Source: Candidatus Altimarinota bacterium
GTDB lineage: Bacteria; Patescibacteriota; Gracilibacteria; BD1-5; UBA2023
Direction: 5' to 3'
NCBI GenBank assembly: GCA_031375155.1
Contig: JANMHM010000012.1
Span: forward strand, 2,343 to 66,342
Length of the DNA stretch: 64,000 nt
Part shown: one piece after another, positions 4,523-62,900 of the stretch
How the letters are laid out: every line of letters begins with the position of its first letter
Numbering within the stretch: the stretch's first letter is position 1
Notes under the pieces: generated by a model
What the model saw: only the letters and a program-made list of their open reading frames with translations
Database searches by the model: none
Told to the model about the DNA's origin: nothing
Program-made: the position numbers and the translations under genes

Positions 4523-4541
4523 ATCTCTCTCGATATACTAT

Positions 4542-4575
4542 AAAAATATACCTCTAAATTTAGAGGTATATTTTT
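4542..4575. terminator. Bidirectional rho-independent terminator
   Basis: AAAAATATACCTCTAAATTTAGAGGTATATTTTT sits between convergent genes and overlaps the rsmA 3' end. Confidence 0.6.
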
Positions 4576-5471
4576 ATCCAATCCTCCTTCCTCACCGCCT
4601 CTGCCCGCACTTTCTCATCGTACCCACATTCTGTGAGCCATTTTTTCACTTCCTCGATATCGTAGTGACTTCACTTCAGATTGGAGAGGAGTGTTTTGCG
4701 TGGGTGGGTGAATGCTACTCTCCAGAGGGCGAGGAGTTTTTCTTCCCCGATTCGGTCACGAGATTTCTTCACCGAGAACTTCACCACGATAGAGTCCACT
4801 TTCGGTGCTGGGTCAAACGAAGCTCGCCCTACATACCGCACGATCTCGATATCTTTGCACGCGAGCTCCATAGCGAGGGAGAGATAGGAGTAGTGCGGTT
4901 TTTTCGCGCGTCAGGCAAGGATTTTTTCTCCTACTTCCTCCTGCATCATGATCACCATGGCTTCAGGTGGTGTAAGCCTCCTTTGTAAAGGAGGTGCCGA
5001 GGTACGAGGCGGAGGATTTTGCTCAGAAATCAAATCCCCCCTTCCCCCCTTTACAAAGGGGGCTTCGGGATACAAAAAATGAAATAATATAGGACTCGTG
5101 ATATAGTACGGGATATTCGCGATGACCGAGTAGTCGTCATATGGGGGAGTGAACTGGAGGATGTCCTCATGGTGGATGGCTATCGGAGTCGTCTTTACGA
5201 GATTATTTTCCTCTCCTTGTATCACTGGTGCGACTTCATCGCCCATATATCGTTCATCGAGGATCTCGATCATATCAGGATCGAGCTCGACGAGGTCGAG
5301 TGTGAGGGGATGATGCGAGAGGATATATTCGGTGAGTGCTCCATACCCAGGTCCGACTTCGATCACATGCCTACCTGCGAGCTCTATGGAGTGGGCGATA
5401 TCTCTGAGCGCCTCCTCGTCGATGAGGAAGTTTTGTCCGAGGGATTTTTTGGCTTTTATAGTTTTTTGCAT
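4560..5471 (-). CDS. rsmA: 16S rRNA (adenine1518/1519-N6)-dimethyltransferase RsmA/KsgA
   Basis: ORFs 4911-5471 and 4671-4871 are in one frame joined by TGA, with stop TAA at 4560. Motifs SLGQNFL, VIEVGPGYGALT, ANIPYYITSPIL and FDPAPKVDS. Confidence 0.9.
4968..5060. mobile_element. MITE-like palindromic element inserted in frame in rsmA
   Basis: 18-nt termini CCTCCTTTGTAAAGGAGG (4977-4994) and CCCCCTTTACAAAGGGGG (5045-5062) are inverted copies. Direct repeats GGCTTCAGG (4959) and GGCTTCGGG (5061) flank it, 102 nt apart. Confidence 0.6.
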
Positions 5472-5488
5472 AGTTTTTATAAATTGTC

Positions 5489-5517
5489 TTGACAGAGAGA
5501 GAGTTTCGTGATAAACT
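5489..5517 (+). promoter_or_regulatory. Sigma70-like promoter (TTGACA-17-TAAACT)
   Basis: TTGACA at 5489-5494, 17-nt spacer, TAAACT at 5512-5517. Confidence 0.45.
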
Positions 5518-5547
5518 CCTATTAGTTTATTTACTATATTTTACTAT

Positions 5548-5727
5548 ATGGTCTGAGATACAAATACTCCACCTTCAGATAATACATCCTATGGATATCC
5601 AGGGGAATGATGCGATACAGATACAAAACCGCCGACTCAAAAAACACTAACTTTAGGATGTTATACTGTAAATCAGGCACGAGCTATGTGCAGAGAATCT
5701 ATAAGAGAAGCTGTACAGGGCTCATAG
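5548..5727 (+). CDS. Candidate 59-aa small protein (or part of an ncRNA)
   Basis: ATG 5548 to TAG 5725 with 2 in-frame TGA. It follows the promoter at 5489, and a weak hairpin plus T-run lies at about 5744-5775. Confidence 0.25.
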
Positions 5728-5901
5728 TAAGCTTAGACAACTGAACGGATCGCTTCGTGCGGGTCATTCTTTTATTATAGTATTCACGATTCTTTTTTTA
5801 CCAAATCGAGAATTGTCTACATTTTTTATACGATTTTTCATCCTACATTCGACATTATCTCTATATCTAGAGAGACAATCTGAGTTTTTCTAAAAAACAT
5901 T

Positions 5902-5929
5902 TTGACATTCATATACTCTTTCATATAAT
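5902..5929 (+). promoter_or_regulatory. Near-consensus sigma70 promoter of the ribosomal-protein operon
   Basis: TTGACA 5902-5907, 16-nt spacer, TATAAT 5924-5929. It lies about 140 nt upstream of rplC. Confidence 0.6.
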
Positions 5930-6068
5930 CCCGTCACTTTTGTATAGCTCTCCGCTTTTCTCCCCTGAGGGAAGCCAGATCCACTCATAGTGATGTTGCC
6001 GGGTAACCATTCGATTACGAATGCCTCCTGACAACCTCTCATTTTAATATCTCTCTCACCATCATCCT

Positions 6069-6623
6069 ATGGCTGGTATAATCGGAAAAAAACTCGAAAT
6101 GACTCGTGTCCTTCATAATGGCGCGTTCACTCCTGTCACTCTTATCAAGGTTCCTACTCTCACTGTTGCCCAAGTCAAAACTCTGGAAACTGATGGCTAT
6201 ACAGCTATCGTCATTTCTATGAAAGACGGGAAGCAAGAGACACTCCGAGAAGTATCTATCACAGGAAACTTCACGGATCTCGAGAAAGGATCTGAGATCA
6301 CTCTCGATATGCTCGAAGGTGTCGTGAGTGTCAATGTAGTCTCTATATCTAAGGGTAAGGGTTTCCAAGGTGCTATGAAGCGCTGGAACTTCTCTGGAGG
6401 TCCTGGAGGACACGGACATAAATATACTCGTTCCCTCGGTTCTATCGGTACACGAAAACCTCGTCGTACAAAACTCGGAAAGAAGATGCACGGACATATG
6501 GGTCTCGATACGATCACCCTGAAAGATGTCCCACTTATCCTCGTGAATAAAGAACTCCGAGTGATCGCTGTAAAAGGTCCAGTCGCTGGCGCACGAAACT
6601 CACTCATCACTCTTACATTTTAG
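6069..6623 (+). CDS. rplC: 50S ribosomal protein L3
   Basis: Intact ORF starting MAGIIGKKLEMTRV. First gene of the cluster. Confidence 0.95.
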   Translation: MAGIIGKKLEMTRVLHNGAFTPVTLIKVPTLTVAQVKTLETDGYTAIVISMKDGKQETLREVSITGNFTDLEKGSEITLDMLEGVVSVNVVSISKGKGFQGAMKRWNFSGGPGGHGHKYTRSLGSIGTRKPRRTKLGKKMHGHMGLDTITLKDVPLILVNKELRVIAVKGPVAGARNSLITLTF

Positions 6624-15801: not shown

Positions 15802-17121
15802 ATGATCGCTAATATCCAAAAAGTCTGGGCAACAGAACATATCCGCAAGAAGATACTCTTCACGCTCGGTATCGTTATCGTCTATAAGCTCCTCGCGACT
15901 ATCCCTGTTCCATGAGTCAATATCGCTCTTCTCGATGCTTTTACTGAGCAACTCCGGGCCAATACTCAGCTCGCGTTTTTCGGCTCTATTATGGGAGGTG
16001 GACTCGAGCAATTCTCCATCATTCTCATGGGTCTAGCACCGTATATCAATGCGACTATCATCATCCAGCTTCTTACTGTGATCATCCCTTCACTTGAGGC
16101 ACTGAAAAAAGAAGGTGAACAAGGACAGAAAAAAATCAATAACTATACTCGCTATCTCACCGTCCCTCTCGCTCTCGCTCAGAGCTATGGTATGATCTAC
16201 CTTCTCAATACTATCATCGGTACAGGAGAAGCTGGAGCGAGTATCATCGATACGACGAACTTCATGGGAGTCGTACTTCCAGCTATGCTCGCGATCACTG
16301 CAGGTACTATGGTACTTCTCTGGCTCGGTGATCTCATCACAGAGTCTGGTATAGGAAATGGGAGCTCGATCATCATCTTCGCCTGAGTCCTCGCAGGAGT
16401 GCCACAGCATATCTTGAATTATATCAGTACACAAAACTATGGACTCCTTCTCGTGCTGGCTATCCTTACGATAGCAGTGATATTTATCATCGTGAAGTTC
16501 ACAGAAGGATATCGTAAAGTGCCACTTATCTATACTCGTACAGGACGTGATGAGCGATCCTACTTTCCTATCCGAGTCAATCAAGCGGGTATGGTGCCGA
16601 TCATCTTCGCGGTCTCTCTCATAACATTCCCTTCACTGATCGGGCAGATCCTCGCGAAACGTGGTACTGGTATGAGTGCTACAGTGGGTGAGTGGCTCGC
16701 GACCAATCTCTCTATGCAAAATCCTGGATGGGTATATATCGCAGTCTACGCTCTTCTAGTTCTTGGATTTGCATTTTTCTATGTATCTATCACGTTCAAC
16801 ACGACTGAAGTCGCAGAAAATATCCAGAAACGCGGAGGATATATCCCAGGAGTACGTCCAGGAAAGGAAACAGCCACGTACTTACAGAAAGTCTCTGACA
16901 GACTCAACCTTTTCTGAGGAGGGTTTCTCGCACTTATCGCAGTATTTCCCTATCTCGCGACCAAGCTTGCTCCGATACTCGGATTTCCCTCTCTCGGAGC
17001 GACACAGATCGACTTCCTGATCTCTGGTGCTGGACTGATCATCGTCGTCGGAGTGATCCTCGATATTATCCGTCGTATCGATACAGATATGAAGAGTTTT
17101 GATTATAAGAAATTCCACTAA
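15802..17121 (+). CDS. secY: Preprotein translocase subunit SecY
   Basis: ATG 15802 (MIANIQKVW). Four ORF-track fragments lie in one frame, joined by TGA, ending at TAA 17119. Confidence 0.95.
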
Positions 17122-17267
17122 AAATCCCTGAAAAACTTCGAATTTCGTTGTCAGAAAAAAGTTTTCTTGATCATTTACAGCTTAGTAAACTCACTTCGAA
17201 AACTTTTTTCTTCCTTGAATTTCTTGTTTTTTAGGAATTTTCATTTCCATAAACTCACTAAATATAT

Positions 17268-38581: not shown

Positions 38582-41074
38582 ATGTCTAAGTATTCGAAAT
38601 TCACTCCTAAAAATCATCAGAAACTCATCTCTGATCTCGAAAAAACTACGACCGAAGAAGAAGTAAAACTCTACTTTTCGAAATTTTTCGATGTGAAGAT
38701 AAATACCTGAGATCGTCATGATCTCTATACGAGAGAAGCGCTTTTTGAATTCAAGTGGGATAAAAATTTCGAAAAAATAGCTGAGCGCTCAAAAATCCTT
38801 GCTCAAGCTCTCTACTATATCCGTGAGATTAAGTATTCTACAGGAGATATATCGTCGGATAAGACGATACCACCTCACATCGTCCTCATCGACCGTAATG
38901 AAGCTATCATCGAGATTACAGCAAATTGGAAGACGTTCTATGATGATTCAAAGTATGACTGGACGCGTACACCTTCGAGTCCAGATCCTCAACTTGTCGT
39001 CGATATTTCCCGCGATAATACGATCGTGACAGCACACATCTATGATCTTATAGAAATAGAGGATTTCCGTATATTCACTGAGAAGCTCGATGATATCTAT
39101 GATCCCCAGATACGACTTGATCTCGATAATACTGATAAGAAACTCATTACCGAAGAGAATTTTGAATCCGTCTATTTCTACTGGAAAGACCAGATATTCG
39201 GAGATCGAAAGACTCATACCAAACTCCCGAATCTTTTCCTCGCGGATATCCAGGAAGGGAAAGCTATGCTCAGTCGTGAGACGGGGGATCTCTACTTCAA
39301 CCTTGGCAATACGAAGAGTGAAGTCATAAATATCACTCCAAGTGACTATGAATACTTCTGGTCACTCTATGCTCGTGTCCGCAACACGGTAACTATTAAG
39401 GGCATTATCGCAAAGATCGACCGACTCTCCGAAGACAATATCCGTCGTCGAGAAGGAGAGTTCTTCACCCCGATCCGATTCGCCACACGGTGACTTCACT
39501 ATCTCGCAGAAGTACTCTGAACTGACTGGCACAAGGAATACAAAATCTGGGATATGGCAGCAGGAACAGGGAATCTGGAACTCAATATCCCCGCAGAATC
39601 TTATCATAATCTCTATCTCTCGACCCTTCATCATGAAGAAGTAGATTATCTGGAGAGGATATTCCATGGAGCGAACTGCTTCCAGTATGACTACTTGAAT
39701 GATGACGTCGATCTCCTCTTCCGTCCTGAGAATCAAGAAAGTCTCATGAGTGATAAATGGAAACTCCCACAGAAGCTCCGAGATGATCTCGCGAATCCCG
39801 CGAATAAGTGGGTCGTGCTGATCAATCCACCATTTGCTACGAGTCAAGAAGCGGGTTCAACCAGTATGAGTAAGGAATGAGTCAGCGATACCCGAGTACG
39901 AAAATATATGCATGATCTCGACCTTGGAGAAGTCTCGCGAGAACTTTTCGTCCAATTCATCTTCCGTATCCAGAAAGAGATTCCCAAGGCACATCTTGGA
40001 CTATTTTCGAAAATTAAATACCTGAATGCTACAAATGATGAAAAGTTTCGAAGTAAAATTTTCGAGTTTGCATTTCAAAAATGATTTATTTTCTCGTCAG
40101 AAAACTTTAGTTGAACAAGGGGTAAATTTCCTGTTTGATTTCTCGTATGGAATTTAGGTATCCAAAGTAATTTACATAGTCAAAAGGTTTGCATAGATAT
40201 ATTTAATAATTCAGTTCAAAAAATTGGCTATAAGAAGATACAAACGACACTCAAATCTTGATTTTTAAGTACATGGATTGAGAGACCAAAAAATACGAAG
40301 CTATTCCCACCAATCAAATCTGCTATAAATTTTTGATTTGAAAATAAAGATGTCCGAGATCGTATTTCAGAAAACTATATCGGTTCTCTCATGTGTCTTT
40401 GAAATGATGTACTTTCGCAGAACGCTGTAGCAGTTTTATCAGCTCCATATGCAAGTGCTTGAGCACATTCAATAGAACAAAATATTTTTGAAAAGAGTAT
40501 GATCGTGCATGCGGTTCGTCGTATCCCAAAAGCGACTTGGATTAATGATCGAGATCAGTTCCTCCAACCAAATCGAGAGCTCTCTGATGAATTTATTTCT
40601 GATTGTGTGGTATGGTCACTCTTTGCAGACTCAAATCAGACGAGCTCTATGCGAGATGTGGAATACAAGTGAGAGATATATCAGATCGTGAATCAGTTTT
40701 TCCCATTTTCGAAGCGTGAGGTAGAGGAGTGGGATTGTCCGAATCCAGATATATTTCTCGAAAACTCGGGAGATAGGTATATTGCAGAGTGGCTCAGATG
40801 AACGACTCTTTCACCTGAATCAAGTGCTCTATTGAATGCAGGAAGAGAGATTTATAAAGTATTTTTCCGAGAGTGGACACACCTCGATCGACATAGCTGG
40901 AAGATCTCGAACTGGGATGCAGGGTGGTATCAGATCCGCAATGCCCTGAAGGAAAAATACGGTATGGATGAGATGAAGATACTGAAAGACGCGCACAGGA
41001 AACTCAGAGAGAAACTCCTCCCGCAGATATATGAGTATGGATTTTTGCCAGAGGAGATGGTGGAAAATAGATAA
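38582..41074 (+). CDS. Fused Type IIG/IIL-like restriction-modification enzyme (nuclease + N6-adenine methyltransferase + target-recognition region), 830 aa
   Basis: One frame through about 16 TGA. N-terminal PD-(D/E)xK-like HDLYTREALFEFK. FFTP, motif I DMAAGTGN and motif IV NPPF at 39554-39880. Confidence 0.6.
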
Positions 41075-59910: not shown

Positions 59911-62900
59911 ATGCTTCGTAGACTTCTGGCATCCTGCATGATTCTTTTTGTCCTGACTTCGAGTCTGGGGCAAGGGATTTTCGCTGAGGAAATGAATCCA
60001 ATACACTCTCTCGATACACTTCCCTATGGAGATACTGGAGAAGGTGATAGAGAAAAACTTCTCGAGACTTTAGAGTCCCTAGAGTCTGATATGAAAGCAG
60101 AGAAATATACACTTTCTGCTTCTCTCGAACTTCCTGATGAGACTATAGCGCTTCTTTCTGATAAGCGAAGCTTTGATCTCTCACCTTCTATTTTTAGCGG
60201 ATTTGTCCTGGATCCATTTCAGGGATTTTTCTCATCATCACTCGTTTCTGGAAGTGGTATCTTTTCTCTTGTGCCGACTCTCAGTGATGAGATTTCGTCA
60301 GAAATCCTCTTTTCAGATACTTCCCTGACTCGCACTCTCCGCGTCGAAAGAAATATAAAAAACCGTAAAAAAGTCTCATCTACAAAAGGATATCTTACGG
60401 TGAATCTCTTCACAGGAACGATGATTTCTACCCTTTCTGGTGAGCTCATCGACCCTGCGAAGATCGGATTTTCTCCACTCTGATCTCTCGAAAAATCCAA
60501 AGCAAAGGCAAAATATGAGAAAAAGATGAAAAATAGAGGAACAAAGAAGAAAGGTCTCGCAGAAGCGGCAGTCGAAGGATTCGAATTCGGACTTTCTGGA
60601 ACACACCTGATCTTCTCTTCGCCTGTCGAGCTCAGTATCGATACACCGAATATGGGAGAGGGCATGGCTCTCGATATCATGACGATGCATGCTGGAGATG
60701 CAGATTTCCATACAGGAGGACTCTCAGTCTCTCCAGATACTCTCTGTAACACTGATGGATCTGCGAGTATCCCCGGATCACAGGCAAGTGTAAAAAACGG
60801 AAAAGTGACGTTCTACACGTGTGGAGCATCGTCATTTACCATGAATCCGACAGGAGGTACAGCGGGATCCAATGATCTTCGCCTCGTCATCGGTGACTGT
60901 GCTCAGACACAGATCTACTACAATGGACTTGCACAGGTATACACAGGAAATCCTCCAGCAACTGGGTGTAGTACGAATTCGACTATGGATTCTTGGCCAG
61001 TACTCCGTATCGGAGGTACATCATATGGAAATGACTTCACTGCATGGACTACAAATACGACTACTGGATCAACGAATGGAAATACGTATACAGCTACTTC
61101 GACTATGACCCGCGTCGTATGATGACTTACCTATACGCTTATTATCGATTGGTCACATACTGCCCCCAATAAGTACGTAACTTGGAGTTGGCGAGTCATT
61201 ATACCAGCGGGAAATACGAACAATGTAATATTTTATTATGGTATGGATACTTTTGTTGCTGGATGAGATACTAATGATACCGGATACTATACTCTAACAG
61301 GATGACAGACTCTTGGAGTGTATGACAGTGTAGCAAATGTACTCTCAGCATTTCGGTACATGTCTGGGGTGACATGGACTGCACATCAGGCAGATAGGTG
61401 GAATAATGTACGTGCACAGATTGCTGGATGAGCCAACTTCACGAATTTTGTAGATAACGCATGAGGTGACCTCTGATTTGGTATCAACTGGAATTTCGGC
61501 ACAGGAGCAAATGTCACTTATAGTGGTACTGTCGAATGGAGACTCCTCCCGTATGTCTCTACTCCGACAGTCGATCTCATTCCAGGTATCGCTCAGCCAG
61601 AGTGACCACTTGCTGTAGGAGCACTTTCCCAACTTCCTATTACAATAGATAATATCGGAAATCTCTCTTCTAGTGGTGTCCATACTGTCGTATTCACTGT
61701 TCCGACCAATATCACTGGTCCTGCAAGTCCATTCACAGATAATGGATGGTCCTGTGGAGCTCAAGTAGGGACAGGAGTGACATGTACCAAGACGACCAAC
61801 ATCTCTGCCCCGAGTGGCACTGATAATCTCCGTATCCCCGTCACTCCTACTCTCGCAGCAAGTGGAACAAGTGTGACATTCACAGTCCGAGTGTCTAATC
61901 CATGAGATGGGAATGTCAGCAATAATACTGCTTTCGCCACCAACTCCGTAGTATGATGAGCCCCAGTAGTCGATGCCTGAGGAATCGCTGGAGAAAGCTT
62001 CTGGCTCCAGGCAAATAATAGTCGGACGAACTGTACTATCCAGTGATGTACGATCACATGATGGACCAACATCGGATGACTCGGTGCAGCTGCAAACGCT
62101 GTCGCAGGACTTGGTACTGTCACCTATGACGCTAATACGACTATCAACGGGAATCCGACAGTATACTTCAATAATGCCTCCCTCAATACTAATAGTAACC
62201 TCAATATCACGACCGCTGCAGCCTCTGTATTTGCAGTGACTCGTATCGGCACGGGGTGAGCATGGAGACTCTGACCACAGACAGCAGTCAATAATAGTCT
62301 CGACTGGATGACCACATCGATACAAGATCGATTTGCTCTGTACAATGGTGTCGTTTTCTATAGTGGCGCCAATCTCCGATCACCGAATGTTCCTGCTATC
62401 ACGAGCTCTCTCAGGCAGGCATGAGGTGCATCAGCCCAGTTTACCAATGCTCGTCAGACCCTTGCCTCAGCAACTCCTGCAACAGCTTTTGTAACAGCGA
62501 GTATAGGGCCATGAAGGTCCAATACAACGAATGCTACTCTTACGAACTTAGCAGAGATCATCACATTTCCGATAGCACTTACTCTCGCCCAAAAAAATCA
62601 AGTCGAGTCGTATCTCGCTATCAAGTATGGTATCACTCTCGACCAGACGACGCCGACGAACTACACTGTATCTGGAGGTGTGATCGTCTGGAATGCTACA
62701 CTGGCATGAGCGTTCAATAATAATATTGCCGGTATAGGACGAGATGACGTCTCAACACTCAACCAAAATCGTTCTCAGTCAGTCACGAATACTGGTGATA
62801 TCATCGTCTCGAAATCTGCTATCGCGACCAACCGTATAGCACTTACCTGGGCCCATGATAACACTCAGATCACTACATTTACTCCTACCGATGCTCCGAC

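Follow-up and report, generated by a model that had tools for sequence, protein, structure and literature searches.

The rsmA gene (also ksgA) examined here harbours a short palindromic DNA element within its coding sequence, and this element is the subject of our analysis. The gene lies in a 64-kb stretch of contig JANMHM010000012.1 from a Candidatus Altimarinota bacterium, which was analysed over its full length and is referred to as the window. On the minus strand, rsmA runs from 5471 down to 4560, comprising 303 codons and a TAA stop codon at 4560-4562. The identity of its product is supported by homologs that carry PF00398 (RrnaAD) and are named 16S rRNA dimethyltransferase, by matches to KsgA structures in the PDB (E = 2e-24), and by the motifs VGPGYG (the S-adenosylmethionine-binding GPGxG) and NIPYYITSP (N(L/I)PY) in the translation, which place it among the RsmA/KsgA proteins. 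Thousands of RsmA homologs were retrieved by protein search, of which the best are 60-88% identical and belong to uncultured code-25 bacteria, one of them labelled Candidatus Gracilibacteria. The gene is universally conserved, yet dispensable in E. coli, and an initial reading made from the letters of this DNA (the sequence-only reading) went too far in calling it essential.

The codon TGA is clearly a sense codon throughout the 64-kb window. Open reading frames (ORFs) of at least 200 codons sum to 30,207 codons across the window when TGA is read as sense, against 5,725 when it is read as a stop, and rsmA itself contains two in-frame TGA codons, at 4911-4913 and 4671-4673. The window is consistent with genetic code 25, in which TGA is read as glycine, because the TGA at 4911-4913 is aligned opposite a GGT (Gly) codon in the ortholog at locus L002. 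No tRNA gene was found in the 64 kb.

On the coding strand, the element reads 5'-GAAGCC...GGCTT-3' and sits between Pro135 (5067-5069) and the native Thr-Pro-Pro-Glu-Ala-Met, in frame and free of stop codons between the conserved FLY and PEAMVIMMQ blocks of RsmA (the parts are listed in the table below). Counted from the first PEA to the second, the insert amounts to 34 codons, and its translation includes the peptides GGRGDLISEQNPPPR and TSAPPLQR. The 18-mers at its ends, CCTCCTTTGTAAAGGAGG (4977-4994) and CCCCCTTTACAAAGGGGG (5045-5062), are each self-complementary and are also mutually inverted, forming terminal inverted repeats with 21-nt arms that are 90% complementary and lie 50 nt apart. 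They are the sole matches in the window to CCYCCTTTRYAAAGGRGG at up to two mismatches, with a chance expectation of 0.01. A second, inner stem is formed by GGAGGATTT (5011-5019), which pairs with AAATCCCCC (5032-5040), and the pairs at alignment columns 112-126, in the linker region, show compensatory changes. As RNA, the minus strand of 4950-5080 folds at -52.4 kcal/mol (z = -4.2), a value equalled by 0 of 200 shuffles. The repeat search and the translation confirmed every sequence statement of the earlier description, namely inverted and self-complementary 18-nt termini and 34 in-frame codons. The Logan assembly of SRR20217215 (locus L157) is 100% identical over window positions 4548-6112, and may derive from the same sample, so that it is not necessarily independent.

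Judged from the alignment of alleles, the copy is shown to have inserted into the codons of the loop that joins the helix after the active-site motif NIPYY to the following beta strand, because empty alleles could be compared with it. With KsgA of B. subtilis (PDB 6ifs), the alignment covers query residues 7-138 and 167-298, leaving residues 139-166 without a counterpart. The closest ortholog, P0002, with 88% amino acid identity over aligned columns and 85-86% identity in the flanking DNA, has a short loop of five residues, which the protein alignment also places in P0005, P0006 and P0009 (FLY-DLEKS-PEAM, for example). As DNA, the empty allele L128 reads TAT GAT CTC GAG AAG AGT CCT GAA GCC ATG, and the window junction reads TAT CCC [93 nt] ACA CCA CCT GAA GCC ATG. 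Inserts related to that of the window are found in P0001, P0003, P0007, P0012 and P0021, where they end ...NP.PPPSAPPLQRRF.PPE. The segment is indeed an insertion relative to KsgA, as had been proposed: 6ifs lacks it, four orthologs keep the five-residue loop, and the nearest relatives in a comparison of RsmA orthologs proved to be empty at this site.

The orthologous inserts, taken as DNA (L001, L003, L004 and L005), form the same two-level hairpin with differing sequence and length, and a six-copy alignment contains 27 consensus pairs, of which 9 show compensatory changes. Copies are not limited to rsmA. One genome per GTDB species was scanned with a two-hairpin pattern of 24 specified bases, for which about 0.1 chance matches were estimated, and at least 119 genome loci were recovered in Proteobacteria, Bacteroidota, Spirochaetota and Patescibacteria. 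Most of these matches also carry two arms that the pattern did not specify, with GGGGGATTT following the first hairpin and AAATCCCCC preceding the second, giving the shared architecture of a C5/G5 hairpin, GGGGGATTT, a variable loop, AAATCCCCC, a linker and a second C5/G5 hairpin. Among the matches listed, 52 canonical modules occur in 24 genomes, including 11 in Geobacter and 9 in Gallionellaceae, while other hosts are Hydrogenophilaceae, Thiobacillus, Tepidiphilus, Methylovulum, Dongiaceae, Brevinematales, Bacteroidia and Patescibacteria.

Several copies occupy other protein-coding genes. A Patescibacteria metagenome-assembled genome (MAG) of 38% GC, with four in-frame TGA codons and code 25 (L111), carries a close copy in frame in a peptidase U32 gene, in the opposite orientation. 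In uvrC of a further code-25 contig (L146), an in-frame copy splits the RNase H-like domain into two matched stretches. At L141 1426-1560, on a standard-code contig of 47% GC, a module lies in frame in lepA, where the solved LepA of Aquifex aligns to residues 1-283 and 316-628 and about 32 residues are left as an insert. Because this lepA copy uses the standard code, in-frame retention is not confined to code-25 organisms. Across related genomes, multiple copies, as in Rickettsia palindromic elements (RPEs), are thus present in rsmA, the U32 peptidase gene, uvrC and lepA. Additionally, a metagenome scan for the right half of the subfamily, AAATCCTCCGCCTCGT(T/A)CCTCGGCACCTCC, gave 18 loci, mostly intergenic and with unrelated flanks, in which this 30-nt stretch is near-invariant. 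The parts are often circularly permuted in these metagenome loci, in the order AAATCCTCC, linker, hairpin, 12 nt, hairpin, extra hairpin and GGGGGATTT, and hairpin units occur as half-modules, inward doublets and outward doublets, resembling the singlets and doublets of repetitive extragenic palindromic (REP) sequences and REPINs.

Within the window itself, no second copy of the family was found, either by an IUPAC search with 2 mismatches or by blastn-short at word size 7. The expectation of further copies thus failed in the 64 kb and held in related genomes, with the U32 peptidase, uvrC and lepA copies and at least 119 loci. An Rfam scan of 8 module-bearing loci other than the window segment gave only sub-threshold miRNA-like hairpins and no credible match. 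The phage collection contained no module match, and the plasmid collection held half-modules only, in Pseudanabaena and Acinetobacter, without annotation. A protein search with a 41-aa insert peptide returned no candidates. As a separate observation, in Geobacter sp. UBA9976 (L015-L123) and Gallionellaceae (L028-L122) the module is central in repeats of about 200 bp with terminal inverted repeats of their own. [quoted passage not shown]

The reading frame is preserved wherever the element was seen inside a gene. In five rsmA copies, the loop segments from Tyr to Pro-x-Glu-Met, element included, measure 102, 123, 114, 153 and 120 nt, all of them stop-free and multiples of three, and the frame is kept as well in the three in-gene copies detected from a DNA pattern only. 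Such lengths are what read-through translation would lead one to expect. In this respect the element resembles RPE-like repeats, palindromes of about 90-150 nt that reside in ORFs without a frame break. Read with code 25, these GC-rich copies are open in about half of the six frames, and therefore roughly one in six random insertions would keep the gene intact.

The position in the protein fold was assessed with an AlphaFold2 model of ortholog P0001, made from a 56-sequence alignment. The core has predicted local distance difference test (pLDDT) values above 90, and the insert (about residues 141-181) lies mostly below 50-62, between the helix at 131-139 and the strand at 184-190. The insert is therefore predicted to lie in a disordered surface loop, and the gap in 6ifs agrees with this placement. 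By the topology of Rossmann-like methyltransferases, the loop is presumably at the edge opposite the catalytic site.

In the interpretation that we favour, the element would be a small, non-autonomous, hairpin-forming DNA repeat, of which one copy lies at 4974-5066. At 93 nt, the copy has no stop in the reading frame of rsmA, where TGA does not act as one, and the gene would therefore stay open. The repeat would be read through as an extension of about 30 residues, rich in Pro, Gly and charged residues, in a surface loop predicted to be disordered, and the enzyme core would be untouched, to judge by the ortholog model. The most likely status of such an element is that of selfish DNA, neutral or mildly deleterious, in which selection would have filtered only frame and position. 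We consider it likely, with good confidence, that the window segment belongs to a dispersed repeat family and has been retained in frame, and hold its translation, as read from the sequence, with somewhat lower confidence.

Several points weigh against this interpretation. A single copy of the family is present in the 64-kb window. The structure model derives from ortholog P0001 and not from the window protein, and the rsmA orthologs came from a protein search, which is biased to intact frames. The junction fits no standard insertion model, with two native codons missing, a Pro-x-Glu-like triplet set repeated and four families all starting directly after the same TAT codon of rsmA.

The junction bears directly on the mode of insertion. 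The sequence-only reading had pointed to 9-nt direct repeats, GGCTTCAGG (4959) and GGCTTCGGG (5061), spaced 102 nt apart, and had taken them for a target-site duplication; the repeats are present as stated, and the duplication is not supported. The downstream 9-mer is native, being found in the empty P0002 allele (CCT GAA GCC ATG), and lies 9 nt past the 3' hairpin. The upstream 9-mer is partly (GAAGCC) the element's own extended inverted repeat, and in the U32 and uvrC copies, too, hairpin 1 comes after a GAA(A/G)CC-like sequence. On comparison with the empty alleles, a canonical target-site duplication was rejected, since copy 2 is native and 9 nt off and copy 1 overlaps the element. The L111 copy is likewise flanked by no duplication, so that the abutting duplication of a MITE is missing. 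Two native codons, Asp-Leu/Ile, are gone from every insert-bearing rsmA allele. The simplest reading of these alleles would be an insertion between the native Pro codon and the next codon of a loop of the Y-D-I-P-N-P-P-K-E-M type, together with the loss of two codons.

A hairpin of this strength could also be a selected cis-acting structure, either in the mRNA, with a role in pausing, stability or processing, or in the DNA, as a site of protein binding or recombination. Nine compensatory pairs among six copies and the near-invariance of the 30-nt right half in 18 unrelated metagenome contexts speak for such a role, and both also count against the interpretation that we favour; the end motifs are, in addition, the same across phyla, and the fold is strong. 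However, close relatives are without the element, unrelated palindromes occupy the same site in sister lineages, either orientation relative to the host gene occurs, no strand folds better across 50 modules (Wilcoxon p = 0.26), and conserved ends would be expected of a recently active mobile family too, which makes a selected structure improbable in our view. It is also conceivable that the segment is not translated at all, being removed from the mRNA or skipped by ribosomes that take off at the first Pro-Glu-Ala and land on the second one, which lies 102 nt downstream. Ribosome bypass has precedents in T4 gene 60 and in the mitochondrial 'byp' elements, which are skipped by the ribosome and, like the GC clusters of yeast mitochondria, are hairpin inserts in organelle genes; the present element differs from 'byp' in keeping the frame open. 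The codons CCC GAA GCC and CCT GAA GCC do flank a strong hairpin at a spacing of exactly 102 nt, with weaker versions of the Pro-Glu-Ala repeat in orthologs, but all of the in-gene copies examined, though of differing length, are divisible by three and free of stops, which would be needless if the segment were skipped. Furthermore, the stop after the putative take-off codon that marks a bypass is missing, related copies have no Rfam intron or ribozyme match, and 31-34 codons are far too short for an intein, so that we judge skipping or removal highly unlikely.

The insert might instead be a lineage-specific loop expansion of the ordinary kind, generated by slippage or local duplication and palindromic only in appearance. 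Loop length does vary among RsmA homologs and the window holds only one copy, yet this explanation is contradicted by near-identical modules in other genes and many phyla, by an 18-mer pair far beyond chance and by the empty alleles of the nearest relatives, and it appears extremely unlikely. Assembly errors can create palindromes, and an assembly or chimera artefact was considered for that reason; the separate assembly is identical, and five other assemblies, which come from different projects, have homologous inserts at this site too, leaving this account with a negligible probability.

The rsmA loop has been occupied more than once. At least four unrelated palindromic families are found at this same loop in related genomes, and all of them fold into long hairpins. 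Apart from the family of the window (family A), these include the AT-rich family B, with the peptide ...QKQEVRG...EVRSFS, in rsmA of P0004, P0030, P0033 and P0058, and family C, with the peptide ...GGSGGETVWAKK..., in rsmA of P0017, while further distinct loop inserts are present in P0010, P0011, P0019 and P0022. In a neighbour-joining tree of the RsmA core, sister pairs differ in their loops, namely the window (A) and P0002 (empty), P0001 (A) and P0004 (B), and P0003 (A) and P0008 (13 residues). The flanking DNA of P0001 and P0004 is 95% and 86% identical, and their inserts, of families A and B, are unrelated. Family B also occurs elsewhere in rsmA, at a second site (L147) and at the 5' end (L148), which brings the rsmA positions occupied in related genomes to three altogether. 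When peptides of the rsmA insert families were searched against the window by tblastn, only family B was detected, at 17.1 kb, and this copy shares a mean column identity of 81% with the rsmA insert of L125. Because several palindromic families have hit the loop repeatedly in related lineages, it would seem either to be preferred as a target or to be unusually tolerant. Two observations on rsmA stand apart from this loop. A second hot spot lies about 25 codons after VELD (L126, L127 and L003), where the GC-rich family C, with the peptide GGSGGETVWAKK...FGTFG, occurs in several Gracilibacteria, and the rsmA of P0019 has large inserts at both hot spots, with 379 residues in total.

Among known systems, the closest comparison is with the RPEs, which, according to the summary of Ogata et al. 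2000 in PMC10969869, occupy unrelated genes in frame. Within what that summary describes, the likeness lies in palindromes of about 100-150 bp, several families per lineage and in-frame residence in unrelated housekeeping genes of a small-genome bacterium (PMC10969869). RPEs are also read through as extra peptide segments at fold-compatible positions, as we infer here. The two differ in host phylum and in genetic code, and the present module is also found in many other phyla, where it is mostly intergenic. Membership in the RPE families proper, RPE-1 to RPE-10, is unlikely because the phylum is different. The analogy with RPEs that the sequence-only reading had drawn is nevertheless apt, as the element is palindromic, in frame and part of a dispersed family with copies in other genes and genomes.

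The REP/REPIN-RAYT systems are similar in their short, GC-rich hairpins, present as singlets and as inverted doublets that fold into long structures, in the lack of a target-site duplication and in their dispersal (PMC3116915, PMC3733652). However, the aligned copies here have no GTAG or CGTC tag, their ends reading GAA(R)CC..., and intragenic copies are tolerated in the present family. No RAYT gene was seen, though no search for Y1 transposases was made, and the neighbour of the module in other phyla is DUF559. Classical MITEs, such as Correia, ERIC, Chunjie and Coxiella QMITE1/2 (PMC10969869, PMC5896051), share the small size, terminal inverted repeats, absence of coding capacity and occasional in-frame intragenic copies, whereas the present element lacks an abutting target-site duplication, and no parent insertion sequence with the same ends was found in the 124 loci examined. 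The coding palindromes of Nematomorpha mitochondria (PMC6649704) are likewise hairpin inserts that persist in protein-coding genes of reduced genomes, but are organellar.

Literature searches found no description for code-25 or candidate phyla radiation (CPR) bacteria, nor of the module's sequence or peptide strings, nor of DUF559 together with repeats, in keeping with the initial statement that none was known for table-25 CPR bacteria. On the sequence comparisons made here, the element is best filed as a new family of the RPE-like kind, that is, an in-frame, apparently translated palindromic repeat, and as new for code-25 Patescibacteria as far as searched. This would extend selfish DNA inside protein-coding genes, which is best known from Rickettsia, to the CPR, and it points to a greater tolerance of genes for such inserts once a stop codon has been reassigned. 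Inserts of varying length in the conserved marker genes rsmA, uvrC and lepA of these genomes would be repeat copies and not lineage-specific domains, and they can lead alignments, phylogenies and predicted structures astray. A testable entry to the spread of REP-like hairpins without a known transposase is also offered by the module shared across phyla, together with the nuclease that is possibly its partner.

With regard to mobility, no cognate transposase or full-length insertion sequence was found. In the 124 loci examined, no left/right pair of modules encloses a gene-sized interval, adjacent modules aside, and no autonomous element bounded by module halves was found in them. The designation MITE in the strict sense, used by the sequence-only reading, is thus unproven, given the missing transposase and insertion sequence and the failed target-site duplication. 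With low confidence, a REP/REPIN-like or recombination route via single-stranded hairpin DNA fits better than cut-and-paste transposition, given the lack of a clean target duplication and of a nearby transposase.

Clustering of the ORFs near modules revealed one recurrent neighbour, a small DUF559 protein (PF04480), which is a Vsr-like PD-(D/E)xK nuclease. Ten DUF559 genes are present among about 702 ORFs, and for 7 of the 10 a module lies downstream, no more than about 170 nt from the stop codon, compared with 17% of all ORFs (Fisher p = 3e-4). Eight unselected DUF559 genes on plasmids and chromids of six phyla were also inspected, with about 260-300 nt shown on each side, and in 7 of the 8 C-run/loop/G-run hairpins followed by a further G-run were recognised by eye, with no control for the background frequency of hairpins on those replicons. 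These plasmid hairpins follow the same grammar with lineage-specific loops. In the window and in the Gracilibacteria loci, no DUF559 gene was seen. A survey of PD-(D/E)xK nucleases places VSR, DUF559 and DUF2726 in one clade that also holds a group I intron homing endonuclease (PMC3424549). We regard the association between DUF559 and the module as a lead and not as a finding. As a counterpart of RAYT and REP built on a different enzyme, the C5/G5 module could be the repeat partner of DUF559 nucleases across phyla, the nuclease acting on extruded hairpins and new copies preferring hairpin-forming DNA, while in code-25 Patescibacteria the loss of TGA as a stop opens about half of the frames through such GC-rich repeats, so that conserved genes would be colonised and gain loops; this scheme is speculative and rather unlikely as it stands. 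If it held, the nesting in MITE-like repeats and the multi-family hot spot of rsmA would follow, because new copies would prefer existing hairpin-forming DNA.

Two loci with DUF559 genes are of note in themselves. In a Bacteroidales MAG (L009 2463-2850), tandem units of 68-69 nt, each comprising one hairpin and GGGGGGATT, lie directly downstream of the DUF559 gene. The Pseudanabaena galeata plasmid pPg_02 (L149, 151946-156811) carries a 4.8-kb DUF559 domain-containing ORF with several C-run/loop/G-run hairpin repeats in its reading frame.

Table. Positions of the palindromic element in rsmA, its component parts and associated features (window coordinates, or locus handles where the feature lies elsewhere).
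Feature	Position	Strand	Remarks
Palindromic element	4974-5066	minus	93 nt, 31 codons; based on inverted repeat, fold, empty alleles L128 and L002, and five related copies aligned
Hairpin 1	5045-5062	minus	coding strand CCCCCTTTGTAAAGGGGG; encodes Pro-Phe-Val-Lys-Gly-Gly; identical in L001 and L111
Inner stem, 5' arm (S)	5032-5041	minus	coding strand GGGGGGATTT; outside the search pattern, yet in most cross-phylum matches
Inner stem, 3' arm (S-prime)	5011-5019	minus	coding strand AAATCCTCC; based on inverted repeat
Linker, 16 nt	4995-5010	minus	GCCTCGTACCTCGGCA; small 3-bp stem; typical of the low-GC subfamily; near-invariant in 18 metagenome loci
Hairpin 2	4977-4994	minus	coding strand CCTCCTTTACAAAGGAGG; encodes Pro-Pro-Leu-Gln-Arg-Arg
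Direct repeat, copy 1	5061-5069		coding CCCGAAGCC; overlaps the 5' end of the element
Direct repeat, copy 2	4959-4967		coding CCTGAAGCC; native Pro-Glu-Ala before Met; same 9-mer in L128
Family B copy	17120-17245	minus	intergenic, AT-rich; based on tblastn, inverted repeats and four-copy alignment
DUF559-adjacent module loci	L035, L009, L025, L046, L049, L065, L099; also L149-L156		DUF559 next to C-run/loop/G-run hairpins

A few other palindromes were noted in the window. The scan for inverted repeats within genes gave few, for example at 60039-60189 and 40854-40965, none of which resembles a repeat family, and these look like chance occurrences. That at 60039-60189 has 23-nt arms 105 nt apart, folds at about -47 kcal/mol and lies in the N-terminal region of a 1328-codon ORF with a signal-peptide-like start; no related copy of it was found. 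At the 3' end of rsmA, a perfect palindrome of 19+19 nt at 4540-4577 (ATAAAAATATACCTCTAAA / TTTAGAGGTATATTTTTAT) overlaps the stop codon between convergent genes, and is probably a bidirectional terminator.

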